Below are positions 6,246-44,800 of a DNA stretch of 64,000 bases, piece by piece (positions within the stretch are counted from its first letter, which is position 1; the number at the start of each line of letters is the position of its first letter). Source of the stretch: Balanoglossus misakiensis (lineage: Eukaryota > Animalia > Hemichordata); contig CM082584.2 in NCBI GenBank assembly GCA_040954595.2, positions 1,040,281 through 1,104,280 of the forward strand. The letters are read 5' to 3'. The translations under genes were made by a program, and so were the position numbers. The notes under the pieces are model-generated. The model did not search any database. It saw only the letters and a list, made by a program, of their open reading frames with translations, and was not told the DNA's origin.

Positions 6246-6924
6246 GGATGAGTCGTAATAATATGCTTCAATCATAGGGGCTTTGAAAATTATTAAAATA
6301 AAATAAAAAATAATGTACTCACAACCGACATTTATACAACAGACAGCTCAAGAAACTCCTCCATGTGTACAATACTTTGCCAATTTAGTGACAACATCAG
6401 CTTGCAGAGCACGTGAGCACCGCTTTCGCCAGCCTGTGGTGCCCGCATATCTTTTTTGTTCAGCAGTAACATGCACGACACATGCAGAGACACAAACGTC
6501 CATGTTGCAAATTGTAGATGAAAGCATCAGCTGCGCTGGTTTTATGGTCAGCATCACTGGCTGTTACATGAAAACTGTTTGTCACATACCTTAACCAACA
6601 TATACGTGTATCTGTATGGAAAGAAAGTAGGCTCACCCCCGGTACAGTATTATTTTATTTTGCATGCACGCAATGGCCTGAATTTGCTAAACTGGGATCA
6701 TCTGCGCGCATTTCAAAACGTGCTCGTTGCTTAACTTCGCGTGCTTTACTACTCACAATTATTCCACTTGTGAACGAACACGTCACCCAATTTTACAGTG
6801 TAGCCATGTGGAAAACTGGTGACAAGGTAATATTTCATTCGAAGATCAACCTACGTTCAGAAAGTTTGCATTGTGGTGAATTCTCACTGCTCTCGCAATG
6901 CGGTCTGTGGCTCACTGCCGCAGA

Positions 6925-6967
6925 CACAGCCGTATTCAGCCTGAATTCTAGTTGGAGTAAAGAAATA
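6925..6967 (+). repeat. Left-hand (3'-end) bipartite TIR: CACAGCC + 11-bp spacer + GAATTCTAGTTGGAGTAAAGAAATA
   Basis: The box at 6943-6967 is the exact reverse complement of 14344-14368. Confidence 0.92.
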
Positions 6968-7548
6968 CAAACTCACAAACCTTACCAAATTACATCGATA
7001 GAGGGCGATATTCATATGGCAATCCTGATCTGTGCTGTGGTCACAAATTTAATACAATACACATTTTAAAAGTACAAGTTTAAAAAAAAATGTATGTAGT
7101 TTGAAAATTTATATTATTTCACTTTTAAATTCATAGATTTTTTCAATTAAATTATATTTTTAATTAATGTTTTTGGCCACGACCTTAAAAAATCATTGCT
7201 CTTGTTTTGTTGGACATACCATGAACCATTTGGTGGGATCTGTTCACTGGATATACTAAAAAATATGACAATAGGGGATTGTATATATATATATCTATAT
7301 CTATATATATATATATAGACACATATCTATATATATATGTATATATGTAATATTTAGACACATGGGCACACACACACACACTTATATAAATATATACCGG
7401 TATATATGTGTGTTCCGATCCATACACTCACACCTCTATGAACTACATCCAAACATCACAAGAAATGATTACTGACAAAACTTGTACTTTTTTAACCATT
7501 TATTCTTTTCTTTAGCAAAGTGCATGCATATCACTTCATCTTAAACAT

Positions 7549-10500
7549 TTAGCTGCTATCTTTGCGAGCCCTTTTCCTTATAGGTGGTTTAGGGTTTCCT
7601 GGGTGATTCCTGATATGATGATCTTTCACCATGCACTTCAACCTGTCTACGTCATTTGGCATTGAGGCATAACTCCTCTCTGCTGTGTTGAAGTGATGGT
7701 GAATGACCTCAATACCTTGCTCACCTAGAAAACCCAGCCCCATATTTGTCATTTCAATTTGACTGACAACATGACATTCAAGAAGGTGCATCTTTGGAAA
7801 CACAGATTCTTTAGGGAAATTTGATCTGTAATATTCCATAAGCCCTCGTATGTTGATACCTAGGAGAAAAAGAGAAAATATAAAATCCTTAGTGAGTGGT
7901 AATTTAAGAAATTGCAAGAGGTTTATCACTTTATCCACTAAACACTAAGGAATCCAAATGTAAAGAGTTACAACTACAACATGAACATACATATAAATGT
8001 AAACATCAAAATAAAATAAAATACAATAAATATAAAAATTATACACTCAGAGAGAGAACAAAAAAGGTGAACACAAGAAAAAATACAAATACAAAATAAA
8101 TTATCGTTGATTATCCAAACAAGAAAATAATACTTATTTTATGCAAACTTCAACATTGAATACATTTACAGCATGCAGCAACCAGGCTTCTAAATCTGCC
8201 CGTGGCTTCTCTGGTATAATTCAAGTATCTACAAACTGCCAAATAGAAAAAAAAACACCATAGAACACGGTTAGTTCAAATACATTATGAATAATCGAAC
8301 AAATGTGATTATCTTGATAAGAATAGTCACCAAGCTCAGTTATTTCATCTTGGGTCAACCTCCTTGAAAGAGAATATGTGTTGTGGCATGATGCAAACAG
8401 TGTCAGTAATGGTTTGAATTTGTCCCTTATGGCCTCTGCATCAGTAATCAGTTCTGGTGTCATCTCCTCAGTACACTGTACCACACTATCAACAATGATG
8501 TTGATATTCTTGTCCTGAATGTGAGATGGAAAAGATCTTATGTTTAATAGGTGTACGTGTTTGCATGAATGCATGAATAAGAAAATGTCAGAAACAAATT
8601 GAAAATGTATTTGTGAATATCTACAACAAAAGCAGAGTAAAACTAAATATTAATTTAACCTTTTCATTTCTAGGATTTGACCTGTATGAAATGAAAATAC
8701 CAACAGGCAAGCATACAAGCAGCAGATAACTTACTGCCTTGGGGAAACTTAAAATTTTAAGAAAGCTGCATGCCATTGTTATCTACATAAAAAAATGAAC
8801 TGGGGTCAATAACCACAAATCATGCCTTATTTTGCAGTTACTCTTATCCTCTGAAGTAAAACAATTTCTTCACTAGATTTAAAACTTGAATATTTGGGAA
8901 GCAATACAATATACTAGTATTATAGAAACCTTGCAGCATGTGTTGACATGGTTTCCAATGAAAGACTTTCCATGGTAAGCCTGTCTGTACACATGAATTT
9001 TATTTAGACTCCTATCAAGTTTCCTGACTGTATATCCAGCATCCCTTGGTAAGTTTCCTTTCAGGCTTGCTGCATCCTCTCTCTGTGTGGAAACAAAACT
9101 GTCAGTGAAACTATTGCAAAGCTGAAGTATGAAATCAAGAGTAGCATGGTTATCCAAAAGACAGGTGAAAATGAGGTGAAAGACTAGGATTATGTCCAAA
9201 ATAAATGTTTGTTTCTCATACCTCAGCACTTGAAATAACTATGGCAACAATTTTCCTGTTATGAGTACACATAAAATTTGGTTTTCTTTTTTCTGGTGTC
9301 ATATGAAACATTATATTATTCTGTTTCTATTACTGCAAATAGAAAAAAATCATTGACATGATCAAAACCTAGCATGAGAAACAAACACTGCAAAGTACTC
9401 TAACCCTAACCTTGGCCTTGGCACTTGCAATTAGCTTTTCCTGCACATCTGATGCTTTTGAAATAGCAGCTAATGAAAGGGAATCATCATCGCTGTCGTC
9501 ATCACTATCATCATCAAGAAGTTGTCTCTGAATGTTATTCTCCATGGCAGCAGCCCTGGCTTCTTGAGAGTCGGCCTCCCTTTCCAAGACAAGGGCCTCA
9601 CGAAGCAATGACACATATGCATCAAAACGTGCTGGTTTGAAGACAGGTTCATCAATGTCGTCATTTTTTTCCATAGCACAGAACATCTTAAGATCAAGTT
9701 CTGCACATGCATTTTCCAGCAACTCAAAAAACCTCTTATATAAGCCAAGGCTTATATGCAGTGCTGGAATTGCAACCTGGAAGCAAAACAAAATCAATGT
9801 AACTGTGAATAAAAAAAATACTGAGTTAAGTAAACTTTAACAGGCCTATTTGGAATATACTGTCTGGCTACTTAGTATTCCCTCAACAATAAATGTAATT
9901 ATTTATAGAGAAGATCATCAGTATACAGTTATGTTTTACATATTTTAGATTTTTTTGAGACAAACCCAAGACCTGAAGTAGCATTCACAAAGCCAGGACT
10001 CAAACCCACTAAGCTAACTTCCCAAGCTAAAAAAAGACTTCTTCTTTAGTTGCAATTTGATCCTGCATGTCTCCATCACATGTGCATATCATATGGTAAA
10101 GTGACAACTGGTAATGCTAGGAGCAAATAAAACTGTTTAACAACCAAGTCAAAATGACAATTATTGATTAAACTGCACACCCTGTTTAGAGGAATATCAA
10201 ACAAAGGCTTGTTGATACAGTTGTTGAACATCAACGCAGTCTTCTTATCACTCCCTGCTGCTACATAGGCCTGGTTGTCAGCTTTCAGTTGCTCAAGGGA
10301 CCGTTGTTTTATTTCTGGTCTGTCTCCTGGTTCACGCTTTGCTTCCTCCTTGGTAATAGTACACCAAAGACAGAAATATCTGCCTAAAGACAAATTACCC
10401 ATGAATTATTGCACATTTTGTACATTTGCTGAAAATAAATTATAATCATTCTTTCACATGGTAAATTACATATAGTGACTGGCTGACTGATAAACAAAGC

Positions 10501-13500
10501 TGCTGATAAACACTAGAGCACAATACTATTATCTAATAACTCCATCATTCATGAATGGAAAACAAGTGATTAGTAGCTCACAATTGACTAATACCTTATG
10601 TGTACTTACCACTTGCACCTGATAACCCATAAATGGTTGTCAGATATTCATAGTCACCAGCAAGAAAAGGAATAACCTTCTTATCTCTATGGAAGAAAGG
10701 TTTGAAAGTTAAAGGCATGGTACATAGCATAAAACATGTTGAAATAACAAATATTCAGTTTGCCAGCACAGTCACTATGAGTATGGCCAGCACTGCTATT
10801 GTTGACAATTGAATTGATTTCAATTGTAAGCGATAACAGTGTTTGTTATACATACACTGGTTGTGCTGACAGAATCGATATTGTGTGTTTCAACATGGTA
10901 TAAGGAACAGACAACACAGTGTTAGTTGAAAGAATCAAGCTAAAAGTATCTGAAACAAATAAAAGTTACAGCTACATGTACTGAGTGTCAGAAAACCAGC
11001 CATTGTAAGAAAAGGTGTGCATCAGTTTGAATAGAGCTGAACAGTTATGTACAATCCTCTACCATGGGTAATGCTGCAGAAGAGAAAACTATGACTAGAT
11101 ATTTTAATGCATAATTGAAATATTTGCATCATTTACATGTATATCATGTACTCACCTCCATGTGCAACTCTCTAATGAGTTGATTTGGTCTAAATTAACC
11201 TTGTAGGCAATCTCAAGGTTATGCCTTGTATCCGGTGCAGCAAAAATATTCCACACCACTGTGTTTTCAATTGAATTAAGGTTGGCCACATTACAAATCT
11301 GAAAGACAGATTTCATGCTGCCACCTCCCTTATCGCCCCCAACTTTACACCAGACTTCATCACAGGGAATAGTGCTTTCCTGCCAAGTAAGTTTATTTTC
11401 TCTGAAATATAAAGTAGATTGATATAATAATATCAATATAATAAATGCATTACAAACATGGTAGTAAAAAATGTTGAAGAATGAGAATGAAAAGACCACG
11501 TGTACAAAATATTGTCTAAAATGTGAAGTGAAATGTAGGTACCATTAGTCTAATTTAATTCAATTGAAAATGTGTAAAGTAAGGTCAAAACAAAACATAC
11601 TATTTATTTTTGACATTATATGATGTCTTTCATTTTTACGTCAATGAAGTTGAATGTTAACTCCAAATTATACTCCCTACCAGCATTCACAAGAACATTT
11701 TAGGGATAACTGAAAGTAAAATCCAAATTTGTTGATTATTCTCAATGTTACCTTTCCAAACACTCAAGCCTAGTAATGATTGCATCCTTCACATTCTCTA
11801 TTACTACCAATGGTGCAAGTCTGATTTCTGTGCAGTGTTTGCCATCTGTTCCCCTCACTTTAAATGTGAAGGGAAGTCTTTCCGCAGAAAGGGGCAGGGA
11901 TAGCGTTTCAGCAATTTCTCTGTCCCTTGTCTCTCCTTGGACATGTATGTTCCAATTTCGCAACCATCTGAGGAAAAAAATAGATTATGTTGAAATGCAT
12001 GTGTACTTACCCATCCCATGACACATTGCCACTATTGACAGGTTTGACTGTACTAGTAAAATATGCTATAAAAACGCTGGCATACACACCCACTTAATCC
12101 TTACCTCCTCAGTGCCCTCAACTTATTCCATGGTAGTGACAAACTGGTCTTTAGCATTAGACCAGCTCCAGGAGGAACATTAGGCAAAAGACCAAGGGAA
12201 TGTAGTTCAGTCTTCCCAAATCTGCCCAGCTCCCGCCTAACCTGTTGTGCTACTGCTTTGCTGTCACCTGACGCACCTGACGCACTTTCTCTTGTCTTCT
12301 CTACAATGGTTGCTCGATGTGCCTGTGTACGAGTTGATACTCTGGTGGAATCCTTCGCTGCCTTTGGGACATACATCAGGTGAATAGGCTTATGGGAGAA
12401 AAATGACACACGCAAATATTTTATTAACATGGGGACATATGTAATGCAGGTAAATGGCCTTACTAGGAAAAATTACACACAAATACATATGTCATGCTTA
12501 AACATATCAGATATGTCAACAATTGAACATTGTGACAATATTACAAAACACTATAACTACTTATTCATTCCTACTACAGTCATAATAATTATGACATTAA
12601 TTTCAAATCAACACTGTTTTTTCCTTACCTTTGATCTAGTTTTGAATGTTATCGCCTCTCCCTTTCTAGAGCCAGGGGTTTGTTCCAGTTTCAGTTTGAT
12701 TATTTTGGTTGCCACTGTATCGAAACCAGCCATCTTGTCGATTTTTTCAGAACAGTTAGCAATGGTGTCAAGTGCTTCTTGTGGGGATATAGTACTGGTT
12801 GTTTTCACGGTCTCTGGCTGGTGTACCGACCCATTCACATCGATGTCAGTGTCATTGCAATTTACATGTAATTGCTGTTGCTGTTCAGGGAGCTTGGCTG
12901 ACGCATAATGATGATCATGGGCAATTGATGTGTAGGGGCAGCTTTCAAAATGGCCTTTCAGATCCCTCAATGGCAGTTCTCTAGTACATCCCCAATTACT
13001 ATAATCGCAGTGTATTGTTAGTGAACTTAGGATATTTCCCAACATGACTGGAATCGAAGCAACTAAATTGCTGTCTATTGTAACCCGACAGACAGGACAT
13101 GTTGGGGAAACTTTGAACCACTCTGCCAAGCAGGGGGAACAAAATGTGTGGGGGTTAGCACACAGAATTTGGACAGGCTCGTCCACAATTTCTTTGCAAA
13201 TAGGGCAATCGAGTTCTTGGCCAATATATGTGCTGTGAATGAATCGTTGTGGAGACAGTCCCAGTGAACACCTAAACCTCTTGCCTGCTTTGGTCTTTAC
13301 AACATTGACGAAATCTATATCAACGGGTGTGTCAGTTTGACTTTGAGTTCCTGAACCCAACTTCCTATCATCAGAGTCATTAGGAGTAGACACGATATTT
13401 AACTTTTTTTTTCACGTCCTCGTTTCGTCTGTTTTGGTTTCCTTCCGGGTCGAGACCGAAGGCAAACATCACACTCACCGTTTCGCGGATGTTTTTTCCA

Positions 13501-13767
13501 CAATGTCACCTTCGTTCTCGGGCTATAGCTAGCTGTACTGACCTGTGTTACATGTAAACAGTAGTCGACTGTCCGCTTGCAATTCTTGCAGAAACTATTT
13601 GGATGAACTGTCGATTCGTCGTTGTTTACGTCAACATTGAACGTATCGCGCAATTGGGTTTGGAAGCTCTTACACGCGTACGAAGTACTGACGATTTTTG
13701 TACCACAAATTCTACACAGTGTTGAGATTAGACCCAAATGTGCATCCAAATCTTTCTTGGTGGCCAT
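7549..13767 (-). CDS. RAG1-like (Chapaev-type) transposase, 10 coding exons, ~1059 aa after correcting one frameshift in the A9 run at 13404-13412
   Basis: Exons read by eye, all GT-AG and phase-compatible: 13767-12629, 12388-12105, 11967-11752, 11401-11156, 10686-10610, 10383-10181, 9776-9411, 9082-8930, 8514-8331, 7859-7549. Motifs: HLGLISTLCRICG..D..HPNSFCKNC..WKKH..CDVC (RAG1 N-terminal Zn finger); C3HC4 RING CPIC..C..H.FC..C..CPVC; HCDY..GC..HFESC finger; KVGGDKGG (D1); LAGDYEYL..GLSGASGRYFCLWC (D2 + CxxC); PALHISLG; FIGNH; PKMHLLECH; LGEQGIE (E). Confidence 0.9.
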
Positions 13768-14343
13768 ATTTTGCTTCAAAGATGATCTGTATTTTGATTA
13801 TGGCGCCACAGACACCGGTAACAGGTAGCGTATAGACGCCGTGACCATGGTGACATTGAGTCAATTTACGTCAATCACAATCACGAACTCTACCGAAAGT
13901 GTAATTACGTAGCCACACGCTAAATTCCGAAGCCACACCAACACTACAAAACGATCGTACATACAGCAAATTACCCCAGAAATTTGTTATTTACGTTGTG
14001 AAAATTGATTTAATTTTAAATCAAGCGCAAAAAAATACACATCATAATCATGCTCACCTACAGATCGCACGGCTACCGTGAAAAAAATCGCCACTAACGC
14101 AACCACAAAATCACACTTTGAGGCGATTGCAGTACATCCGGAAGCCAGCAAAATATCAGTGAGGTTGTTCGGACATCTTCGGAAACCAATTATACTTAGC
14201 AAATGTCACGATTATGTCCATATTAGGTAGTTACCCCGCCCAGAACTTGCTTCGATCGATCGGCGGCAATTCTCAAAAAACATGTGATTGAAATCCCGCC
14301 GCGAGTTCTCCCTATACACGAGATCTCGTGCGTTTGACATTGT

Positions 14344-14395
14344 TATTTCTTTACTCCAACTAGAATTCGCCTTACGTACGATATTAACAGCCGTG
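14344..14395 (-). repeat. Right-hand (5'-end) bipartite TIR: CACGGCT + 20-bp spacer + GAATTCTAGTTGGAGTAAAGAAATA
   Basis: The reverse complement of 14344-14395 reads CACGGCT GTTAATATCGTACGTAAGGC GAATTCTAGTTGGAGTAAAGAAATA. Confidence 0.92.
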
Positions 14396-14606
14396 CAGAC
14401 CGCATTACACGTAGAAATAAATTCTGTACGTCACAGTTCGTAGGTCGCATAGGTCATGGAGTTAATCCATTATACATTGCGGCTTACAATTTCTCGTGAC
14501 CCTCTTATCATGCAGCTTGTGTGTTACTGACCACTGACGCATGTCAAAACACTCAATATTTTTTTTAAATTTGCAAAATCTTTCATTTTAAAGTTGTGAT
14601 ACTCAC

Positions 14607-16202: not shown

Positions 16203-16276
16203 TTTTAACCGTAGTATTAGTTACGTAGTATAGATTGTGGTATAGATTTATTTTTGAGTATAAATATAGAAGAAAC

Positions 16277-17758
16277 ATGGATATCGCAGAATTTATTGAG
16301 TCACCATCCCTTGCCGGATTGGAAGCATGTAAAAAGGTGGATTTAATTGAGATTGCAAACAAACTTGAGCTCAGCGTGAAAACTTCCATGCGTAAAGATG
16401 AAATTAAGCGTATCATTGTTGCATTTCTGGTCGATGAGGATAAATTGCCACTAGATGCTTTAATTCAGTATCCTGAAATTGAAGAAAAGTCGACAAATGC
16501 TGATTTGCGTCTGATGGAATTAAAAATGGAATTTGAATTGAAGGAGAAATTGAAATTAAAAGAAATTGAAATGCAGGAAAAATTGAAATTAAAAGAATTC
16601 GAAATTAGAGTAAAAGAAATTGAAACTGCGGAAAAGATGAAAATAAAAGAAATGGAAATGAGAAATAATCTTGAGAGAGAGTCAATGGGTCTTCGACCAG
16701 ATGTAAGAAATGAAGAGAGTTATTTTGATTTGGGAAAACAGATACGCTTAGTACCTCAATTTAATGAGGATGATATAGATAAATATTTCCAACATTTTGA
16801 GCGTGTCGCCAATAGTTTGAAATGGCCTAAGGATAAGTGGCCTTTGTTGTTGCAAAGTGTTTTGAGAGGTAAAGCTCAAGAAGCATACTCGAATTTGTCC
16901 CCTGATGAGTATGTCGATTATGAGGCAGTTAAAACTGCTATTTTGAAAGCGTATGAGTTGGTGCCGGAGGCATATCGACAGAAATTTAGAAATTTGCAGA
17001 AGTCGAGTCGTACTCATGTTGAATTTGCCCATTTGAAAGAGGTGTATTTTGACCGATGGTGCCGTGCTAAAGATGTTGGAAACGATTTTGATAAATTGAA
17101 ACAGTTAATTTTGATTGAAGAATTTAAGAGTTGCGTGCATGATGAAATCAAAACATATTTAGATGAAAGAGATATTGAGTCATTGCATAAAGCTGCCACA
17201 ATGTCTGATGATTTTGCATTGACACATAAACTTTCTTCTTACAGAGGTAAAGACCATGGACCAGGTAGGGCAACAGCGTCAGCGACTGTCGCCAATGCTG
17301 GAGGGTATAAACCAAATTATTCAAAACCTCCCATTCAGGTAAATCGTACAAGTGGATCAAATTTTAATCATCAGAATAAATTGAGAATTGGCTCGAGCCC
17401 TCCCATATGCCATTATTGTAAGAAACCGGGGCACGTAATGTCGTCATGTCCTACGTTTCCTCAGTGTTCATATTGCCAAAAGAGGGGACACACAAGAAAT
17501 GAATGTTTGCTTTTGAAACGGGCACAGCAAAATGTAGCGTCGCCTAATGCTTTTGTGTCTGCTTGTCCAAAAGTTGTTTCGGAAGCTTTATCAAGTCGTA
17601 TTGATGAAATTAGAAAACCCGTAATTAGAAAGGAATTTCAGCCCTTTGTTACAGATGGGTTTGTGTCAGTTGTTGGGGGGAAAACCTATGCCCATTCGGA
17701 TCTTGCGGGACACAGGTGCAACCCAGTCTTTGCTGTTAGAAGGAATTTTGCCTGTTGA
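16277..17758 (+). CDS. gag: Gag of Gmr1-like Gypsy (coiled coil, capsid/SCAN-like region, two CCHC knuckles)
   Basis: LVPQFNEDDIDKYFQHFER..W...W..LLQ; AYELVPEAYRQKFR; CHYCKKPGHVMSSC; CSYCQKRGHTRNEC. The homologous frame probably shifts to pol at the G6A4 run near 17675-17685. Confidence 0.9.
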   Translation: MDIAEFIESPSLAGLEACKKVDLIEIANKLELSVKTSMRKDEIKRIIVAFLVDEDKLPLDALIQYPEIEEKSTNADLRLMELKMEFELKEKLKLKEIEMQEKLKLKEFEIRVKEIETAEKMKIKEMEMRNNLERESMGLRPDVRNEESYFDLGKQIRLVPQFNEDDIDKYFQHFERVANSLKWPKDKWPLLLQSVLRGKAQEAYSNLSPDEYVDYEAVKTAILKAYELVPEAYRQKFRNLQKSSRTHVEFAHLKEVYFDRWCRAKDVGNDFDKLKQLILIEEFKSCVHDEIKTYLDERDIESLHKAATMSDDFALTHKLSSYRGKDHGPGRATASATVANAGGYKPNYSKPPIQVNRTSGSNFNHQNKLRIGSSPPICHYCKKPGHVMSSCPTFPQCSYCQKRGHTRNECLLLKRAQQNVASPNAFVSACPKVVSEALSSRIDEIRKPVIRKEFQPFVTDGFVSVVGGKTYAHSDLAGHRCNPVFAVRRNFAC

Positions 17759-18578
17759 TTCTGGGACGGATACTGGGGAGCAAGTTATTATACAAGGTAT
17801 TGAGGGAAATTTCCTTACGGTACCTCTTCATCGAGTAGTCCTTGATTCAAGTTTGGTGTCTGGTCCTGTAGTGGTGGGGATTCGACCGTCATTGCCGATT
17901 AAAGGTATATCTTTGTTGCTAGGCAATGATTTGGCCGGAGGTCGGGTCATTGCTGATCCTAAAGTGGTGTTTGGTCCAGTTACGTCTGCCGAAACCGAAA
18001 AGCTGGAGAATGACATTCCCGGTATTTTTCCTGCTTGTGCCGTAACACGTTCTCAGGTCAAGCACATGAACAAAGAAGCGCATAATTTAGAATCGATGTC
18101 TGATGATCTTGATTTGTCTGAGACTTTTATGGGAAAGTTGATTTCGAATGTTGTAGACGATGAAAGTTTATTGAAAGTTGATGATAATGTTTCGAAAACG
18201 TCAGTCGATAAAGTTGATTCGAAAATGTCGCTGTCTCGTGAGAAATTGATATCAGAACAGAGTAAAGATTCCGATCTTGCTCCACTGTTTGAAGTGGTTT
18301 TGTCTGTCGATGAGTTGAAAAAGGTTCCAAGGGGTTACTTTGTGAATCAGGGAGTACTGATGAGAAAATGGCGTCCTCCCACTGAGCCTGCGTCGAATGA
18401 ATGGTCGGTATTGTACCAAATTGTTGTTCCTGAAAGTTATCGATCTCAGATTTTGGGATTGGCCCATGAGGGTCCAATGGGTGGACACTTGGGTGTTTCC
18501 AAGACTATGTGGAAAATTACTCGACATTTCTATTGGCCAAAAATTAGAAAGAGCGTTGCTGATTATTGCAGAAATTGT
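17680..18578 (+). pseudogene. pol: Pol part 1: aspartic protease and integrase Zn-binding N-terminus, cut by nested insertion
   Basis: ILRDTGATQSLL protease motif; LAHE..MGGHLGV.KT...F.WP...V..YCRNC, continuing as HVCQ at 22258. Confidence 0.9.
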
Positions 18579-18920
18579 TGAAACGTCTACACACAACTGT
18601 ATTTCAATGGACTCTTTATTCACATCAGACCATGCTCGACATCTACAATCACACACCAAAAACAAGATGGCGTTCCCTCTCCAAAACGAGGCTACCCACC
18701 TCCCACCTCTTGACACAGAGGGCGCCATTCACAAAAGTACTCAAATGTCTCATAACTTCCCCCCCTTCCCTGCACATGTCCACATGTGACAAGAATAAAT
18801 TCAAGAGTCCAAGTGTTCCATGCCTGTTGCAAATAATTAAATAAAATAAATAAATAAATAATGTTTAACAATCAATGCATTTTTTTCATACACAGTAGTC
18901 GACAGTCAACAAAGACAGTT

Positions 18921-20122
18921 TTAGTCCGATATCTGTTCCGTGAGTACATAATCCTGCAACCGACGTGGAATACGGCGCACTCTGGTAGAACGACGCAAAT
19001 TAGATTCTGCACCATGGTTGCCATCAGTCTGCTGGCTCCCTGACCCTGCAGCATCCATCCCTTCATTTCCAGTCGGCTCCATTTCCGTCTGACGGTCTGG
19101 TACCACACTCCCCTGGGTGGGTAACACACTCCCCTGGGTTGGTATATTTCCTATACGTGAACTTCCCAAAAGATCCCCATCCTCAGAATCGGAATCGGAA
19201 TCACTACTATCGGCAACTGACGGTTGGTCATTACCATTAGTTGACACCTCTGGATCTCGCAAAGGCGAACCAGCATCAATTGTCTGCTCACTCGTCTTAC
19301 TGTATAAATGTCCTGGCCTCTCTCTGTATGGACGAAGTTGATCATGATGTATCACTTTCCTTCTCCGCCCCCCCCCCCCCCCCCCTGGCTTATCCTGTAC
19401 AACACATCGCTGATTACCTTGACGACGATGTAAGGACCATTCCATCGGGCACTGAGTTTAGGTGAACGTCCCTTCCTTCTGGCATTGTTAGCAACCATAA
19501 CTTTGTCACCAACATTGTATTTACAGAATCGGCTGTTTATCTTTGACTTCTCACAACGTCTGTCTCTCAATTTAGCCAGTCTATCATACACCAGTTTTCT
19601 GGCCTTGGTGAGTTTGTCAAAATGATCTTTGACCCTGTCCCGGGCTGTACACAAACCTCTTGAATTGACTGTGTCTGTGGGTACTGGCTGCAATGCAGTT
19701 CTAACCTCCTGACCGTACAGTAAGAAATACGGTGTATGCCCGGTAGCATCATGTTCACTCGTGTTATAGGTGTGGATGACTTTTGGTAGATGGTCATCCC
19801 AATTGTCTTGACACTCGTTAACATAGTTCTTTAACATGTCAGCCAAAGTAAGGTTGAAATGTTCTGTTTGTCCATTTCCAGATGGGTGGTAACTTGATGT
19901 TCTTGTTTTTGATGTGTTGAACATTCTGCACACCTCAGACAGGAGATTACTTTCGAAATTTCGTCCCTGATCACTGTGTAATGTCTCTGGTGGACCAAAC
20001 AACAAACACCAATCATTGATGAATATTTCTGCTATGGTAGAACTTTCTTGATTGGGTACTGCTTTAGCTACAACAAATTTACTAAAGCCATCATTTATGG
20101 TTACAATGTAGCGATTTCCTTT
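18921..20122 (-). pseudogene. N-terminally truncated integrase of the nested element, frameshifted at a poly-G run (~19367-19385)
   Basis: GNRYIVTINDGFSKF..FGPPETLHSDQGRNFES..YHPSGNGQTEHFN..TGHTPYFLLYG..WNGPY; C-terminal LRRSTRVRRIPRRLQDY. Confidence 0.88.
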
Positions 20123-20232
20123 GGGAAGGGGGGGAAGTTATGAGACATTTGAGTACTTTTGTGAATGGCGCCCTCTGTGTCAAGAGGTGGGAGGTGGGTA
20201 GCCTCGTTTTGGAGAGGGAACGCCATCTTGTT

Positions 20233-20865
20233 ATTTACAGGTTTGCTGAGGTAAGTATTAGGTTGTGTCAGTCCTTTGAAAGTCACATTTTTCTTTACAA
20301 AATCAACTTCCATGCTTCCCAGTTTTTCCATAACATCCGTTCCCATCAAGAATTCATTGCGCATGAGCTTTGGAGACATTACATACACCCATGTTGGACC
20401 AATGACAAAATTTTGAACAGTAAGATCGACTTGCACCTGGCCATCAAAGCATACGGGTGTACCATTAACTGCTTCTGGCTGAATATTCACAGGATACAGT
20501 GGCAACCCGTTTATGGCTGGTAGATCACTTCTGACTATGGTAATTTGTGAACCACTATCTACGAATATGGGCGTCTCAACTCCATTTATCATACCCGTAG
20601 TCCTATATTGGTCGCCGCATGTGCGTGAAGTCATTGTGGTTAATATTTGGGGTGAGAGTTCATCGTTGTTCATTTGTTGTTCGGTAACAGTTTGTTGACT
20701 ATGATACTGATTCTGGTCATGTGGCAATCCCCAGGCTCTAAGGCCCCGGACAGGCAGTTCCGGGGTCCCCCGAACATTGCCACTCACCAGATCATCAGTA
20801 CACAGACCATCCATGGCCGTCTTCTCAACAGAGGTCAAGGGCTGGCCAGCGCCCCGACCTCCCAC
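20233..20865 (-). pseudogene. Protease portion of nested pol (-1 frame relative to gag), truncated before RT
   Basis: INGVETPIFVDSGSQITIV..FLMGTDVM. Confidence 0.85.
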
Positions 20866-22058
20866 TAGTTTGGGTAAAATTCAGGACAATTGGCTGCCTT
20901 ATGTCCGTAACGATGACACTTGAAACACTGGAACCGATTAGGACAGTTTCTTCTAAAATGGCCGAACCGTCCACATTCAAAACACTTACCAGTTGTCTGT
21001 GCAGGCCTTGTTGATGAGCGACTGGTTCTACCACGACCTCTTTGTTGGTTGCTCTGGTTTCCGTACACCCGATTAACTTGCGCATCAACCATTGCTGAAA
21101 TTGTTGGCTCTAAGCTTGAAATTGCAGATTCAACAGCCTCGCGTACCACACTACTTACGGTTGTATCGACCTCCCCTACTTGCATGACGTTGTCAACAGA
21201 AATAGTGTTCTCCTTTGTCTGATATTTTTGCCAGTTCGTGGCAAACAGAAATGAAGAGAGATGAATTGTCAGCACAGCGGGAATTTCATTGCACAGATTA
21301 CGGTCGCTGCATCTCCTTTCAAACATATATTCCGATTCTGAGGATGGGGATCTTTTGGGAAGTTCACGTATAGGAAATATACCAACCCAGGGGAGTGTGT
21401 TACCCACCCAGGGGAGTGTGGTACCAGACCGTCAGACGGAAATGGAGCCGACTGGAAATGAAGGGATGGATGCTGCAGGGTCAGGGAGCCAGCAGACTGA
21501 TGGCAACCATGGTGCAGAATCTAATTTGCGTCGTTCTACCAGAGTGCGCCGTATTCCACGTCGGTTGCAGTTCGTGGCAAAATCCACGACCTCACTTAAC
21601 TCCGCTTCGGCAACTTTGTAGTGTAAGGCAACAGATAACTGGTCGCCCAATTCCCTAGGAAGACCGACGATAAACTGACCTTTGATAATTGAGTCTAATC
21701 CGCTACCAACGCATTTGGGAAATCCTTCAATTGCAAGCTTTCTTAGGGAACGCACGAACTTCCCAATGCTCTCCCCGGATTCCAGTTTACGGCAATGAAA
21801 TTCCCGCTGTGCTGACAATTCATCTCTCTTCAATCCAAAATGTTTTCTCAACTCTACCTTTATCTTATCTATGTCCTTTTTGTCATCTACCGACAGCAAT
21901 TGGATTACGGTCGCTGCATCTCCTTTCAAACACGTGCGTATTATTGCTGCAGCTTTGTTCTCTTTACCTTCTGCCTCAATGATAGCATCGAATCTATCCA
22001 ACCAAGGTTCCAGTTCTCCTCTCTCCTCCCCGGTGAAATATTCTACTTTTTTGGCCAT
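20865..22058 (-). pseudogene. gag: Gag of nested element, interrupted by a 322-bp mosaic insertion (21246-21567)
   Basis: MAKKVEYFTGE..WLDRFD..ESIGKFVRSLRKLA..QFIVGLP. Removing the insertion and one 14-bp duplicate rejoins VVDFATN-WQKYQ..., leading to CFECGRFGHFRRNC and CFKCHRYGHKAANC knuckles. Confidence 0.88.
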
Positions 22059-22253
22059 CGTTTACACCGCTGCCACCATTGAAACGTCTACACACAACTG
22101 TATTTCAATGGACTCTTTATTCACATCAGACCATGCTCGACATCTACAATCACACACCAAAAACAAGATGGCGTTCCCTCTCCAAAACGAGGCTACCCAC
22201 CTCCCACCTCTTGACACAGAGGGCGCCATTCACAAAAGTACTCAAATGTCTCA

Positions 22254-24708
22254 TTGTCATGTTTGTCAGTTGGTCGGAAAACCTAATCAATCTGTTCCTG
22301 TCGCTCCGTTGAAACCCATCCCTGCCTTCGATGAACCGTTTAGTAAGATTCTGATTGATTGTGTAGGGCCTCTGCCAAAAACTAGATCTAGGAATCAGTA
22401 TTTGCTGACTATTATGTGTATGTCTACGCGTTTTCCTGAGGCGATTCCACTTCGGAACATAACGGCTCCAGTGATTGCCGGAGCACTGTCACGTTTCTTT
22501 GCATGGGTTGGATTTCCACGAGAGATTCAATCTGACCAGGCAACTAATTTTATGTCTGGGTTATTTCAGCAGCTAGTTTATCACATGGGGATAAATCAGG
22601 TTAAATCCAGTGCGTATCATCCAGAGTCGCAGGGGGCTTTAGAGAGGTTCCATTCTACCTTGAAAAATATGATTCGAGTGTATTGTTTCAACAATGACAA
22701 GGATTGGGACGAAGGGGTGCATTTGTTGCTTTTTGCAGTTCGAGAGTCTGTTCAGGAGTCGTTGGGGTTTAGTCCATTTGAATTGATATTCGGCCATCGA
22801 GTGCGCGGTCCTCTTAAATTGCTGAAGGAACAATGGCTTGACGACAGTCCATCGGGTATGACCTTGTTGAAGTATGTGTCCACATTTAAATCCAGACTCA
22901 GTGAGGCATGTGAACTTGCTCGAGCTAATTTGAAATCATCCCAAAATAAAATGAAACACTTGTACGATAGGGTAGCGAAGAGTCGCGCCTTTAAACCTGG
23001 TGACAAAGTATTAGCGTTGTTGCCCATAACCGGAAATGCTTTGAGCGCACGTTTTCATGGTCCGTATAAAATTCTAGAGAAGGTTGATGATGTAAATTAT
23101 GTAATTGAAACTCCTGATCGTCGAAAGGCGACACAATTATGTCATATAAACATGTTAAAGCTTTATCGTAATGAAAACCATGTACATAATGTATTGCCTA
23201 TAATGTCTCCAGAAGTAGATCATGAAACAGACTCGACATATGTAGCAGTTGCTGACGTTAAGAGCGACCATGATGTAAAATTGAAAAACTCAGAGCTGTT
23301 GAGTAATCGGGATACTTTATTGGGGCATTTGTCACCTGACCACAGGAAAGATATTAGTCAGTTATTAGATAAGTATGTCGATTTGTTTCCTGATGTGCCG
23401 AAGAGGACTAATGTGTGTTTTCATGATGTAGATGTGGGAAATACCAGACCCATCAAACAACATCCATATCGGGTGAACCCTGAGAAGCTTGAGAAAATTC
23501 GGGGTGAAATTAAATATATGTTGAATAATGATATCATCGAAACTAGCAATAGCTGTTGGGCTTCGCCATGTCTTTTGGTGGATAAGCCTGATGGCGGTGT
23601 AAGATTTTGTACTGATTACAGGAAAGTTAATGCCATCACCAAAACTGATTCTTATCCCATCCCTCGGATTGATGACTGTATAGATCGCATTGGTAAAGCA
23701 CAGTATATAACTACTTTAGACTTGCTTAAAGGTTATTGGTGTGTTCCATTGACTGAAAGAGCCAAGGAGATATCTGCTTTTGCCACACCAGATGGTTTGT
23801 ATCAGTATAAAGTTATGCCTTTTGGCATGAAAAATTCTGGAGCTACTTTTCAACGAATGATGAATTCATGTGTAGAAGGGATGAAAGAAACAGATCCCTA
23901 TATCGATGACATTGCCTCATATGGTGGTGTACTTTGGTCTGAACATCTAGCATCACTTGACAAATTGTTTGACCGATTGCGACGAGATAACTTGACTGTA
24001 AATTTGAGTAAATGTCAATTCGGAAAGGCTAAAGTTAGGTATTTAGGCCATATTGTGGGGGGAGGTGAAGTGGCTCCTCTTACTGCTAAGATTAAAGATA
24101 TTGTTGAATATCCGGTGCCAGTAAATCGACGTGGTTTAATGCGTTTCTTGGGGATGGCCGGTTACTACAGGAAATTTTGTAGAAACTTTTCTGAAGTGGC
24201 TGCCCCTCTAACCAATTTGTTAAAGAAGGGCAGAAAATTTGAATGGTCTTCGTCATGTCAGATATCATTTGACAAAGTCAAATCGTTGCTGTGTACTGTA
24301 CCAGTGTTGAAAGCACCCGACTTTACCAAACCATTCGCATTGAATGTAGACGCGAGTGACGTGGGAGCTGGGGCTGTATTACTTCAATTTGATGGTGCTA
24401 ATGTGGCACACTCAGTTGCTTATTTTTCTAGGAAATTTAATTCTTGTCAACAGAATTACTCTACTATCGAGAAGGAAGCCCTTGCTTTAGTCTTAGCAGT
24501 TCAGCACTTTGAAATCTATGTAACTTCATCTGGGAAACCCGTTGTAGTTTTTACAGACCATAATCCGCTGGTATTCTTGCATAAGATGAGAAATAAGAAT
24601 CGACGATTGCTTAATTGGAGTTTGTTGTTACAAGAATATGACTTGGAGATTAGGCACATTCGGGGAAAAGATAATGTATGCGCCGATGCTTTATCCCGTA
24701 TGTATTAA
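22254..24708 (+). CDS. pol: Pol part 2 of Gmr1-like Gypsy: integrase core, RT, RNase H (open frame)
   Basis: IDCVGPLP..QSDQATNF..HPESQGALERFH (DDE); GPY; then WASP, DYRKVN, LDLLKGYW, MPFG, YIDD, YLGH; DASDVG, YSTIEKE, TDHNPL, ADALSR. Confidence 0.95.
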
Positions 24709-39463: not shown

Positions 39464-40885
39464 GGGGGGACACCAACATCGTAGTCAGTGAGGTCATCTA
39501 TGGTGGTGGGCGCGTCTTCCACTCGGCACTCCTCCGCGCACGCTTGGGGGATAAAAAATGCATCAAAAACCCCTGGCGCGTCCTCGCTCCCCCTGCGTCG
39601 ATGGATTCTGTGCGACTGCTTCCGCCCCCGTCCTCTCTGGTTGCTGTGTCCGGATTGATGATGTTTTCCGGTGAGGTCGGATTTCCCGGAATTCTTCCTG
39701 TCGTGATTGGGATACCCACCTCAGCAGTATGCTAAGGACACGCCAGTGGATGAGAATCGCTGGTGTGGTGGGGGAGCTCAGTCGGAACCTGTTCGGCACC
39801 TCCCACCCCTGGAAGACGCACAGGCGCTTCATCATCACCATGGACTCCGGTGAACAAAAGGATTCCGTAGGGATCCGTCCAGGTCCGCCCCTGCGGATAT
39901 AGAAGTCTAGCAGGTCGGGTATTTCATTTCCTGGACCACACAGCCAGTATAGGTGAGTTTCTCTAACGCCTCAACCGCGTCCCGCTCGCGGAATACTACC
40001 GGCTTCTCAGTAAAAATAACTGGAAGGTGGCACTGAAAGGCGTGTTTCTTCAGTTTGCGCGTGGACCTCCGGCCTCCCGGGAACGGACATGGAGAAGGGC
40101 CTGATGAGTAATGTGGAACAGAGGATAGGGGGCTCCTTCGGGCCGGCCTGGCGCTCCTCCAGCGGCGTTCGTCTTCTTTGGGCGGTTCCGGCGTCGGATA
40201 CCGGATCGGTGATCGACGTCTGGGGCTGAGATCTCCCCAGCGTGAAAAGGATGGTCGTTCACGGGAAGGTGGGCGGTCCCGCCTTTCCTCTCGAGAACGC
40301 TCCGGTCGCGGCGACCGGGTTGGGGATCTGGACCTAGTAGGGCTGCCGGGGTGGCGTCGAAGTTCCCAGGGGATTAGATATTCCCCCGCCTCCAACGTCG
40401 CCTCCAGCTCCAATGGGTTGATCAGTGACTGCAGCGGCAGCATTTCTTGGCGTGGGGGTGATGGCTCCTGCAGCAGCCCTTGGTTTCCCCCGTCTCTCGC
40501 TACTGCTATTGGGGGTGATACACGGGTGCGGGGTGGGTCTGGCCCTTCCGACACCTCCATCGCCTGGTCCTTGTCGCCACCGAGTACCTGTTTTTCCAGC
40601 TGCGGATCCCGGAAGATGCTCAAAGTTTCCTCCAGGTCGTCAGCTGCGGTGGTGGTTCTTGTGGGCTCTTGCGGGGAGATATGGCCAACGAATCCCCCAC
40701 GTACGCGGCCTGGATTGAACTCCCGAGGTAGTGTGCAGGTTTTTATGGCTGCGTCGGATGGTACGGGCAGGTTGGCTTCATTCTTTTCCTTCCCGTATAC
40801 ATGCATGGCCTCCTCCCGTACCGTGGACATCCATCCTATGTCGCCTAGAACCGTGGCTACTTGACAGTTCTCACGGAGCATCAGG
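39464..40885 (-). pseudogene. GC-rich fragment of a TE-borne accessory ORF (RS/RP-rich region, C2H2-like finger, P..P..L.HWRVL motif), frameshifted
   Basis: Abrupt rise in GC. CPFPGG..LKKHAFQCHLP; after a frameshift, LLDFY..MKRLCVFQGWEVPNRFRLSSPTTPAILIHWRVLSILL. Confidence 0.5.
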
Positions 40886-40905
40886 AACAGTATTTTATGT
40901 CTCAC

Positions 40906-41812
40906 CTCCACTTCAGTTGTCGCTGTTGTATTTAATGTGGACGATGTTTTATATCTGTTGATAACCAATGGGCCTAGTTTAACTGTGGCACCTACATCCA
41001 GTGGCAGCGCTGTTTTCTCACCCCAAAGGTTGACTTCAGCATCTCTTGTGCCATCAGTTATGGTCAGTTTACGTCTCTTTGTAGAATTCGATGTATGTGT
41101 CACTGATTCATACTGTAGTGGAAATAAAATGGAAAACATTGAATGTTAATAATTACGAGTAGTAAATGTTGTGGAGAAATAGTGCAAGAGTGGTTGTTTT
41201 TTGTCAGTTGCTTTTTAAAATTTGAACTGCAAAATGATGAATCGATGGCAGTAATTTTGACCCGAGGTGAGTTGACAAGGCATGGTTGTATCATATAAAT
41301 GGATTTTCAATGTACGTGATCGCATGGAGGCTGCCATATTGGATTACATCTGAAGACCTTCCCATTGGGCTTCGGTTGAATTCGGGAAAGGTCTCTAAAA
41401 TGTAATGGGTCATTCAATTTTGTAGAGTAAATTTCTAAAAATGTAGAAGATGGGAGGTTAAGATACCCAAAATGACTACGGCAAAAAAAAAGTCAGGCCC
41501 ATAAGTTTCGGGGTGCGATTATAACGTACCTTTGCTCTATCATAGAGGCAAATGGTATTATCTCTTCCAGTGGAAAAGTTGCGGAGCTGTACGTATTCTC
41601 CCTTCTGTAATCTGTTCAGCCACTTCGGATTTTCTTTCCAGAATTTAAGTTCCAGAACGTTGCCATCCTGCTGCATACAAGGCACGCTAAACAGTTTCCC
41701 GTTGGCGGAATTCCGGATCTCGACATCCTCCATGAGGCGCAATTTCAGTGCCACGCCTTGGCTGGTTGGGGATGAGGGACCGGGAGCCGGGGATGCCATA
41801 ACGCCGTTAAAC
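40906..41812 (-). pseudogene. Spliced gene remnant encoding RPA-like OB-fold domains
   Basis: Exon 41812-41530 (..LELKFWKEN..LQKGEYVQLRNF..) and exon 41112-40906 (RKLTITDGTRDAEVNLWGEKT..VGATVKLGPLVINRY..LNTTATTEVE) have canonical AG/GT. The middle exon carries a stop. Decayed copies lie at 42245-42615, 43050-43200, 61180-61340 and 61815-62054. Confidence 0.6.
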
Positions 41813-44800
41813 CTGAAATATAGATTGAGAGTGGATATTGTTTTACACAATTTTTGACAATTGAAGTAAAGTATTAGAATGATGGAGTCCGATAAAAAAA
41901 GTGAGTTGGTGATTGCGGTATCCGACTTCGTTATTAAAAATGGAAAGATTTGCGATTTGAGATTCGGTTACCATTTGCAAGTTTGAAAGGAAATATTTCA
42001 TTGAAGCACAGTGGCAACTACTGGGTTATGGAGAATTTTTGAAATGTTGATGAACGGAGACTTATTAGAATCAATGAAAACCTACCTTTAACGGTGTTAC
42101 GGTTACTAAACGTGAGAGACCGCTTGTCTCGTTCATCCGATTCTGAGCTCCTAGCTCTTGTGGAGACATGCGGAGGTACAGCGGGTTAACGGTTAGAAAG
42201 TGTTGATGAAAGAAATAAGTTTATAGGCCAATCAGGAGTTAGAGTCTCTAAAATGTAATGGGTCATTCAATTTTGTAGAGTAAATTTCTAAAAATGTAGA
42301 AGATGGGAGGTTAAGATACCCAAAATGACTACGTCAAAAAAAAGGCCCATAAGTTTCGGGGTGCGATTATAACATACCTTTGCTCTATCATAGAGGCAAA
42401 TGGTATTATATCTTCCAGTGGAAAAGTTGCGGAGCTGTATGTATTCTCTCTTCTGTTATCTGTTCAGCTATTTCGGATTTTCTTTCCAGAATTTAAGTTC
42501 CAGAACGTTGCCATCCTGCTGCATACAAGGCACGCTAAACAGTTTGCCGTTGGCTGAATTCCGGATCTAGACTGTATCCTCAATGAGGCACAATTTCACT
42601 GCCACGCCTTGGCTGTCATTGTGGGTATGTTAACCTCCCATGTCCTACAGTTTTAGAAATTTAGTATACAAAATTGGATGACCGATTATGTTTTAGAGAC
42701 CTTTCCCGAATCCACCTGAAGCCCAGTCGGAATGTCTTGGGATGTAACCTAAATTCAGTATGGCCGCCTCCATGCGTTCACTTGCATTAAAAAAAAACGT
42801 TGATTTTATCTCCGAGTGGCGGTGTTTATCGTCAGTACCAATTGAAACGCGGCACTCGCTTACAGGTCGCATTTTTATTTTTGAGCGCGTTCTAATATTC
42901 TAGAAAGAAAAAAATGATAGTTTCGAGTACAGATTACATGTATTTTAAAACGAGGTTTGGTCACAATGGTATCACTACTAAATGACTTACAATCGATGTT
43001 TTTAATTGTCTTTGCACCACAGTATGAATCCTGTGATGGTAAATCGCATTCAACTTAGAAGGCGTGGAGTAAGTGCAACTGATGGTAACTGGGATACCAA
43101 ACTGAAACGTTTGGGAGAGAAAACCTTGCCATGCATGGACGTGGGTGGCACAGTTAAACTTGGGTTAAATACTACAGCGACAACTGAAGTCCCGGTGAGA
43201 TATTATAAAATACTCTTACATCATAAAATTGAAATCCTACATGTCAATAATTTCATATTTTCACTAATGTTTAGCAAAAAACAACTGCTCTCAACAAACC
43301 TTACCCCTCCCCCTCTTGTATTGTCAGTGCTTTGTAATCTATCAGTAACAATCCATTTTTTTCTCTCAAGGTGTTAAAAGAACCTATAGCTACTGGTGAT
43401 GACATGATACCGTCCATGGGGTGTTGGAGGTAATACACTTTGTAAGTATTAACCAGTCAGGACGAAAGTGGGGTAATTACGGCGGTGAGATCAAAGAGAT
43501 CTATTTGAATGTGAAAGTCGCTGAGTGGCAGTTACGGCCAGTTCGAAAAATTTTCAAACGGAGATTTTCGGTACTACAAGTGATCGTAGTGCACCCATTT
43601 TTCTAAGACGTGTATGAAACACCATAGTCAATGATAGGATGATTTTTCGTGAAGTTTTAACGACGCTTTCCCGAGAAAGACAGTTTCGGTATGTTGGTTT
43701 AAATTGTGGTCCTTGACTCTCGGCAAAGATTTCTTGTCTTGAAAAAAATTGGGTAGGTTAGGAAGATATTGAACTAAGTTACCGTGAAATTATAATAGTG
43801 TGAGCCGCTCCGTTGTGGAGTAATGACGGTGTAAAAATTGCCTTCGCCATCGACGAGTACAGCCGTGTTTGCCATGTGTGTATGCATTGAAGTAGGTCAA
43901 CGCATGTTAACCCATGACGTAATGGCTTCCTTTTCAACGCGTCGTTATCTCTCATTAGCATATTACATAAGGAGTCTATACACTATTCACGCTGACTGAC
44001 TTCTCAGGACTGACCTATGGCACAGTAAATTGTGGTCCTTGACTCTCGGCATGGATATATTCATGTCAAAATTATGAATAGAGGAGTTTAATAATGTTTC
44101 TAAAACCTGAGGGGGTTAATTTTTGTGAGGGTATGGCTGATATTTTTTTTTGTAACTTCAAGGTCACTTTGAATTTCGAGATCACAATTTTGTCAGTGGA
44201 AGTAAAGAAATTCTTCTCGATAAAACTTCATGAAAAATCACATGTAGTACACTCATAGTACCAGTAATGTGCCTGGGGTGAAATAATTGTCAGAAATGGG
44301 TTGCTAGTTGCTTAACTTTCGTTGTGAAAAAAGTTGAAAAACTGTATGCAAATGAGCAATTCAAACGTTACTGGCCAGTTCAAGTGTTTGCATTGCATGA
44401 TCCCCTGCTGTTTAATTATCCCACTTACGTCCTGACTGTAACTGCAGTAGTTGCTTACATCAGACTCCCACTATCTGCATGCAAGTTGTGGATGGATTTG
44501 CAGAGAGAGAGGCTAGTACACGGCACTCATGTGGACCTGCACTACCACATTTCTATTCAACATCAGGTCTCTGAGTAAAAAGATGGCCATGTAAATTTTC
44601 TCTAAGTTTGTTAGAGAAATAAAGTACAACTTTAGTGTTTCACTAATTGAGTTTCAGTGTTCTTGTATTGTCTCGTTTGCCCCATGCCAACCTCAAAGTA
44701 AACGTCAAATTTGCCATTTTTGACTTATTTGTCCTTGTAGTGGGCCACATAGCATTTTAGTGCAACTTATGAAAATCTGAAGAACCAAATGCCTAATTTA

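Follow-up and report, generated by a model that had tools for sequence, protein, structure and literature searches.

The Chapaev element and its ends

The DNA analysed here is a stretch of 64,000 nt from the hemichordate Balanoglossus misakiensis (contig CM082584.2), referred to as the window. At positions 6925..14395 it carries a complete Chapaev cut-and-paste transposon of 7,471 bp with a single gene. Chapaev DNA transposons were reportedly introduced by Kapitonov and Jurka in 2007. The same 25-bp box is found near both tips of the element, at a short distance from one and a longer distance from the other, and the features are as follows.

6921..6924, plus strand: target-site duplication CAGA, left copy
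6925..14395, no strand: whole Chapaev transposon, delimited by CAC...GTG ends, a 4-bp duplication, an empty site and contigs that start or stop at these bases
6925..6935, plus strand: short-end tip motif, downstream of the gene; scores 12.6 on the 11-bp tip profile of the relatives, whose training set included this element
6943..6967, plus strand: short-end 25-bp box, starting 18 nt from the tip
7549..7859, minus strand: exon 10, with H(4)H motif, putative catalytic Glu E1007, short basic tail and stop
8331..8514, minus strand: exon 9
8930..9082, minus strand: exon 8
9411..9776, minus strand: exon 7, with LH motif and long helical insertion; located by tblastn with the related protein P0001
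10181..10383, minus strand: exon 6, with C(2)C motif
10610..10686, minus strand: exon 5, with putative second catalytic Asp (GDYE, D640)
11156..11401, minus strand: exon 4, with putative first catalytic Asp (GGDKG, D570); Pfam DUF1280, E 3e-11
11752..11967, minus strand: exon 3, from tblastn with P0001 and splice borders
12105..12388, minus strand: exon 2, NBD-like region and start of DDBD-like region; family profile aligned to mouse RAG1 up to residue 490, AG/GT borders
12629..13767, minus strand: exon 1, with Chapa/NZD zinc finger, RING, zinc finger A and start of NBD-like region; Pfam RAG1_imp_bd E 1.9e-13, RING E 8e-9
14344..14368, minus strand: long-end 25-bp box, starting 27 nt from the tip
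14385..14395, minus strand: long-end tip motif, upstream of the gene; scores 15.4 on the same profile, trained in part on this element
14396..14399, plus strand: target-site duplication CAGA, right copy

An earlier sequence-only reading had described one end as CACAGCC, 11 nt and the box, and the other as CACGGCT, 20 nt and the same box. Both descriptions are exact: the left end has CACAGCC at 6925-6931 and the box at 6943-6967, and the right end, on the minus strand, has CACGGCT at 14395-14389 and the box at 14368-14344. The two boxes are identical at 25/25 positions, so that the arms are 100% complementary, and elsewhere in the window no site on either strand comes within 7 mismatches (the next three best have 8 each). 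The spacers had been called largely unrelated, and indeed they do not align after a 9-bp gap; both, however, begin with GT, which is part of a tip motif of about 11 bp, CACRGNNGTTT. CAC and the GT at positions 8-9 are present in 20 of 20 training ends, the GT being a selection rule. The resemblance of CACAG to the heptamer of the recombination signal sequence (RSS), which the earlier reading had stressed, is not special: CAC is invariant in Chapaev ends (PMC4079192), and the A at position 4 occurs in one end only. A heptamer was rejected as the unit of the tip, the conserved motif spanning about 11 bp, and the box was rejected as an RSS nonamer, its sequence being CAYTTAG-like with no A-tract.

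The element begins with 5'-CAC and finishes with GTG-3', as is typical of Chapaev, and its duplication CAGA falls within the 3 to 4 bp of this group. It differs from the 3-bp TWA duplication of Chapaev3 and from the 5-bp duplication of Transib in the narrow sense. Two public runs of one sample, X1 and X2, contain 89% and 81% of the sampled window words; they are not independent of the window, since they are possibly its own source. A contig from X2 joins 6922 to 14398, omitting 7,475 bases, that is, 7,471 plus 4. This empty site lacks the element and one 4-bp copy, and the boundaries and the 4-bp duplication are therefore real. In X1, one contig begins exactly at 6925 and another ends exactly at 14395, with ungapped ends and a depth of 216-257; the contigs break at each tip with no flanking sequence attached, a branching pattern suggestive of more than one insertion site. 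No indel is listed inside either end in either run. Inside the element the X1 contigs differ from the window by 15 fixed differences and 3 one-base indels, and thus represent more than the window copy read again. One of these indels lies in the A-run 13404-13412, where the exon 1 frame is broken in the window copy and unbroken in X1 and X2; the frame is thus open at this point in the family consensus of these runs. A further X1 contig, with depth 161, matches 6941-6972 (the box region) and 8927-9000 (a conserved exon 8 stretch) and differs elsewhere; it is a second family in the same runs, with the box in common with the window.

The flanks of the element belong to a very high-copy repeat, with depth in the thousands against about 230 inside the element. 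The empty target site (window 6897-6924 plus 14396-14413) can form a hairpin whose stem has 15 pairs (the 85-base piece gives -21.7 kcal/mol, a value without a shuffle control), and the element is inserted in its 3' arm.

Box offsets and polarity in related elements

Relatives were collected by scanning metagenome contigs. Eighty of the 98 confirmed loci (numbered with the prefix L) were taken up, 43 with room for both ends and 37 without. In viral contigs the box pattern had no matches, and the family alignment gave 86 pattern matches of which none was confirmed. Among prokaryote genome contigs 1 of 38 stretches was confirmed (L081), which has no ends and was not used; this Chapaev-like core (17-1927) lies on a 2.3-kb contig in a bin titled Deltaproteobacteria and is likely a stray piece of a eukaryotic host.

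Unequal spacing was found by three approaches. The first, which made no use of the box, accepted a pair of ends if both tips carried CAC and GT, if they agreed at 7 or more of the 11 tip bases and if the 4-bp duplication was exact. Seventeen pairs from 10 families, including the window, passed; two of them (L060 8810-16377 and L067 5629-16296) are probably other elements and were not used as family representatives. In 7 of the 10 families (6/9 without the window) the best inner match was 9-12 nt out of register, while shuffles gave a mean of 1.7 families and none of 1,000 reached 7. The misses were L011, L037 and L041, the last with a best offset of -15 here and boxes at 20/30 by the box profile described below. 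Furthermore, the motif CAYTTA, with one mismatch allowed, was tallied in ends chosen by the tip profile only, one end per family. It stands 19-20 nt from the tip in 13/22 upstream ends and 30-31 nt from the tip in 10/14 downstream ends, against a background rate of 0.012 per position; no upstream end (0/22) has it at 30-31, and one downstream end (L001) has it at 20. Finally, a leave-one-family-out box profile was applied to the 13 two-ended families including the window, 10 with a matching duplication and 3 without. Its best sites lie at 19-20 on one end and 29-31 on the other in 10/13 families, 9-12 nt apart, the difference between ends being 9, 10 (six times), 11 (twice) and 12. None of the 13 has two clear boxes at an equal offset. 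A tip scan with a lower cut-off (195 candidates scoring 5-11) contributed L002 and L003, both at 20, and L029 at 30; five further matches at 30-31 were judged to be chance or other elements.

Offsets are also stable within families (7/7 and 6/7 in the largest, 3/4 in another), though single copies deviate in L067 (29 for 30) and L017 (36 for 31). Spacer length stays constant while spacer sequence varies, with core identities between families of 30-72%. L001 has a long shared block of about 27 bp with a 10-nt offset between its ends. The earlier reading proposed an 11/20 rule and named equal or freely varying spacers in other copies as grounds for abandoning it; applied to the relatives, this test did not refute it. 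The near-one-turn asymmetry, which could have been a simple indel, is a feature of the family, being unchanged in the read contigs, and of the clade (10/13 families). The values 11 and 20 are exact for the window, but the usual Chapaev offsets are 19-20 and 30-31, which is 12/23-like, so that 11/20 is a 9-bp variant. The window element has the smallest difference among the clear cases and a box extended to 25 identical bases. We are highly confident that the unequal-end architecture is a real trait of the clade.

In most loci the short end lies upstream of the gene, whereas the long end is upstream in the window and in L001, and the downstream end is short in L002 and probably in L003. A core tree of 36 rows (midpoint root, 12 rows unlabelled, several labels from one end only) shows a single change of the polarity label, with support 93/91, below the mark for strong support. 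Since the asymmetry survives this swap of sides, it appears to be a constraint on the pair of ends and not on a promoter or terminator side.

Other observations concern the same loci. The 4-bp duplications have 21/56 bases G or C. At L060 8810-16377 a Chapaev copy is enclosed by another CAC-ended element with inverted repeats of about 60 bp and a GTAC duplication. At L077 (14203-14450) the short end of a second copy faces away, 250 bp past the long end of the first, in a same-family cluster. End-specific conserved motifs beyond the box, 35-60 nt from the tips, are present in L055, L069, L071, L074, L075 and L041: TTCCGG near 52-58 nt at the upstream end, and ACACCCC followed by an A/T tract at the downstream end, possibly promoter elements or further binding sites.

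Transposase gene and neighbouring frames

The single gene, on the minus strand, extends from 13767 to 7549 and is split into ten exons bounded by AG/GT. With an X placed at the frame break, its translation is 1,059 residues long and contains no internal stop. The DDE core of Chapaev is present, with D570, D640 and E1007 as the presumed catalytic residues by likeness to known enzymes, together with CLWC at 659, PALH at 726 and HLLECH in exon 10. The N-terminal Chapa finger of Chapaev and the RING of two of its subgroups are both found (Pfam values above), which sets the protein apart from the core-only transposase of Transib in the narrow sense. The family profile matches NZD structure 21WB (E 6.7e-12). 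The closest protein found, P0001, comes from the annotation of Ptychodera flava (66% across 877 aligned residues), and other relatives come from hemichordates, echinoderms, lancelets and sponges. No RAG2-like gene was seen: each end has about 630 bp outside the gene, and the element has no plus-strand frame longer than 174 amino acids, although no kelch search was run. The CX2CX3GHX4C (CCGHC) C-terminal tail is absent from exon 10 and from 52/52 relatives that reach the last Glu. The identification of the element as a RAG2-less Chapaev with a 4-bp duplication was thus borne out by boundaries, empty site and gene content. An imperfect inverted repeat in intron 4 (10730-10902; 84-nt arms, 70%) could represent a small, old insertion.

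A profile of 89 relatives is collinear with mouse RAG1 101-490 (from NZD through RING, ZnA and NBD to the beginning of DDBD; E 8e-13); weak matches to RAG1 continue at 644-740 and 905-1001. An earlier 32-sequence profile, searched against the PDB, reached RAG1 weakly, via the RING region. Structural comparison was made with an AlphaFold2 model of a relative, P0005, 39% identical to the window protein (predicted local distance difference test score, pLDDT, 75). RAG1 ranked first in Foldseek (E 3e-16). With VIA-align, the model gave Z 29.4 against RAG1 (513 aligned, root-mean-square deviation (rmsd) 8.6, model 414-1080 including the NBD range), Z 25.1 against ProtoRAG RAG1L and Z 24.1 against HzTransib 6PQX (409 aligned, rmsd 3.5), and the first unrelated row had Z 10.6; the core alone gave Z 27.3 against RAG1 (456 aligned, rmsd 3.5). 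The RAG1/Transib catalytic fold is therefore recognized in the relative P0005 rather than in the window's own protein. A single-sequence model of exon 2 had pLDDT 57 and a predicted template modelling score of 0.23, and a two-copy prediction of the NBD-like region, in which the alignment was not used, scored 0.02, which speaks neither for nor against a dimer.

On this evidence, Chapaev is predicted to have the RAG1/Transib fold and all RAG1 domains in their order. In Kapitonov and Koonin (2015) it is one of four clades that make up the Transib superfamily, while other authors put it in a CMC or wider CMCT clade. The possibility that Chapaev lies outside the RAG/Transib lineage was rejected, its transposase being collinear with RAG1, of the same fold and from a Transib-superfamily clade. 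For the same reasons the earlier suggestion that asymmetric synapsis is older or more widespread than that lineage is not supported in its original wording; since Chapaev lies inside it, the unequal ends widen the pattern within the lineage.

Other frames occur in the window. The long frames at 16229-24708 and 47308-52272, one of them apparently lying within another in the opposite orientation, resemble Gypsy-type long terminal repeat retroelements (gag, protease, reverse transcriptase and integrase by eye), and the frame at 46089-47285 is presumably reverse transcriptase-like. At 39907-43377 three unannotated frames on the minus strand contain short beta-rich segments that are related to each other, as well as an RS/P-rich stretch.

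Proposed pairing of short and long ends, and known systems

We moderately favor the view that the transposase works best on one short and one long end, as RAG does on a 12- and a 23-RSS, without RAG2. The core would bind the 11-bp tip and cut at CAC, by likeness to RAG and Transib; the 4-bp stagger at insertion is shown by the target-site duplication. The transposase has a predicted RAG1 fold and a predicted NBD-like region, which may read both boxes as a dimer bridging the two ends on a flexible hinge, and symmetric pairs would be disfavored. Cleavage could pass through flank hairpins, which are established for RAG and Transib. In RAG, the NBD dimer pivots to accept one short and one long signal and enforces the 12/23 rule (PMC10629977), and ProtoRAG requires its spacer lengths (PMC8289069). 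Invertebrate RAG1L proteins use the CX2CX3GHX4C tail for tip-proximal binding and rely on the first 15-17 bp (PMC10629977, PMC7204232). Because this tail is absent in Chapaev (0/52), the NBD-like region is the likely box reader and the box should be more important.

Several points weigh against this view. The GT rule, the 7-of-11 threshold (set to let the window pass), the CAYTTA motif and the 9-12 window were chosen after seeing ends, and 9/22 upstream ends lack CAYTTA at 19-20, some of them probably false ends. Of the 13 families, eight were found in a single assembly (prefix WLWD01) and group in one clade, and are therefore not independent. Three families depart from the two-offset layout: L037 has no clear box, L068 has offsets 23/31, and its sister L011, although a multi-copy family, combines a perfect 20-bp repeat with an upstream box that is degenerate. 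The window box matches the profile of the other families poorly (score -2.2 at both ends), its best match being its first bases, at offset 20 on the short end and 29 on the long. The GRP motif at the NBD start occurs in 6/83 relatives and not in the window, and the box has no A-tract; the contact chemistry therefore differs from that of RAG1. In addition, RAG1 has no significant preference for 12/23 when RAG2 is missing (1.4- to 2.6-fold; PMC4840297), which counts here because Chapaev has no RAG2. L011 and L068 are the clearest exceptions, and since they are sisters nested within the short-upstream branch, their relaxation looks derived.

The same RAG1 experiments, where heptamer and nonamer are required and 12/23 is ignored (PMC4840297), fit another explanation, in which the box is a transposase site and each end is bound and cut alone, the unequal spacings being an inherited and tolerated layout. 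Invertebrate RAGL is also fairly insensitive to asymmetry (Martin et al. 2020, PMC7204232), and L011 remains multi-copy although the upstream box is shifted or lost in this pair of families. However, neutral drift should scatter spacer lengths across transposases as divergent as these, and instead two values are held over variable spacer sequence, with none of 13 families showing two clear boxes at one offset. We regard this explanation as rather unlikely, though it deserves the most attention among the alternatives. It is improbable, in our judgment, that a host factor or another transposase domain, the Chapa finger, reads the box, with the spacing serving transcription, DNA bending or a piggyBac-like higher-order complex. 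The rarity of GRP and a box unlike the RSS nonamer would suit such a reader, the role of the Chapa/NZD finger is described as untested (bioRxiv 2026.01.24.700457), and piggyBac, an enzyme of unrelated layout, has identical palindromes at unequal distances from its tips while piggyBat needs unlike ends (PMC11707139). On the other hand, the box starts as far from the tip as the RSS nonamer does, the NBD-like region retains its place in the domain order, R431 of P0005 is conserved in 81/84 members, and the short end can sit on either side of the gene. That the window copy is an ordinary inverted repeat with a 9-bp indel in one end can hardly be credited: single copies do shift, as in L067 and L017, and the window difference of 9 is the smallest, but the X1 ends are ungapped, X1 and X2 have no indel there despite differences elsewhere, the window spacers do not align after the gap, and the relatives are built alike.

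A broader proposal can be put forward tentatively, as possible rather than likely: the common ancestor of Chapaev, Transib and RAG1 would already have had, and enforced, the 12/23 geometry of a distal block near 19 and 30 nt read by an NBD dimer, at a time when RAG2 had yet to be captured. Chapaev would then survive today as an enzyme of one protein that contains all RAG1 domains in order and follows a one-turn rule without RAG2. Studies of RAG evolution leave open whether the 12/23 rule arose with the transposase, with RAG2 or with a particular Transib (PMC4840297, PMC8355894, PMC10629977). The N-terminus of RAG1, missing from Transib, is present in Chapaev, which has neither RAG2 nor the CCGHC tail; it therefore allows the NBD-like region to be viewed by itself. 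Should Chapaev keep and need 12/23-like spacing, that geometry is older than the split of RAG/Transib from Chapaev and RAG2 is unnecessary for it. Natural variants (differences of 9, 10, 11 and 12 nt, flipped polarity and a family with a decayed box), together with a young near-intact element, make this a directly testable system.

Among known systems, the window element is most like the Chapaev subgroup with Chapa and RING, sharing CAC...GTG ends, a 4-bp duplication, a DDE core with C(2)C, LH and H(4)H, a Chapa finger followed by RING, and a single gene; the accessible portions of these accounts mention CAC tips only and no one-turn bipartite asymmetry (PMC4411706, PMC4079192, PMC12730594). 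PiggyBac and piggyBat also set an identical inner motif unequally from the tips, and their unlike ends are needed together, but their end sequences and binding domains are unrelated and the spacing difference is not tied to RSS offsets (PMC11707139). Unequal bipartite ends occur in several RAG2-less Transibs, such as Transib5 and Transib2_AG (PMC1131882), and in all subgroup I Transibs (PMC9435367), and Yakovenko et al. (2021) called some Transibs the only known transposons with 12/23 asymmetry (PMC8355894). Asymmetric Transibs share with Chapaev the lack of RAG2, the RAG1-fold enzyme, a tip plus a distal block and, in some families, 12/23-like spacing; they have 5-bp GC-rich duplications and an A-tract nonamer without Chapa or RING, whereas Chapaev has 4-bp duplications and a CAYTTAG box. 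RAGL transposons likewise have bipartite unequal ends: 27/31 in ProtoRAG (PMC8289069), a 10-bp asymmetry in PflRAGL-A (PMC10629977), and in AanRAGL 13-bp and 10-bp blocks with 4/13 spacers, a 9-bp difference and offsets 17/26, close to 18/27 in the window. Unlike the window element, they carry RAG2L, 5-bp duplications and mostly a CCGHC tail.

The vertebrate system has the same NZD-RING-ZnA-NBD-core order and CAC tip, and in the RSS the 7-bp heptamer and a spacer of 12 or 23 bp place the nonamer at offsets 19 and 30 (PMC1131882). The distal block lies at such offsets in 10/13 Chapaev families; in the window the 25-bp box is at 18/27 and its motif-like core at 20/29. The A-tract nonamer and the GRPR/K motif are absent, and Chapaev differs from vertebrate RAG1 in its structural sequence identity of about 12-16%, the lack of RAG2 and of the GRPR motif, another distal sequence and a long helical insertion. 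No description of unequal bipartite ends for Chapaev was found in the literature searched, which included PMC3014272 and bioRxiv 2026.08.26.747230; Repbase Reports 2007/2008, Panchin and Moroz 2008, Yuan and Wessler 2011, supplements and most subscription papers lay outside this search and may mention them. A conserved 12/23-like layout in a RAG2-less relative of RAG1 is thus apparently undescribed, and what this work adds to the known systems are the precise 12/23 offsets, the flip in polarity and a test element that is nearly intact.

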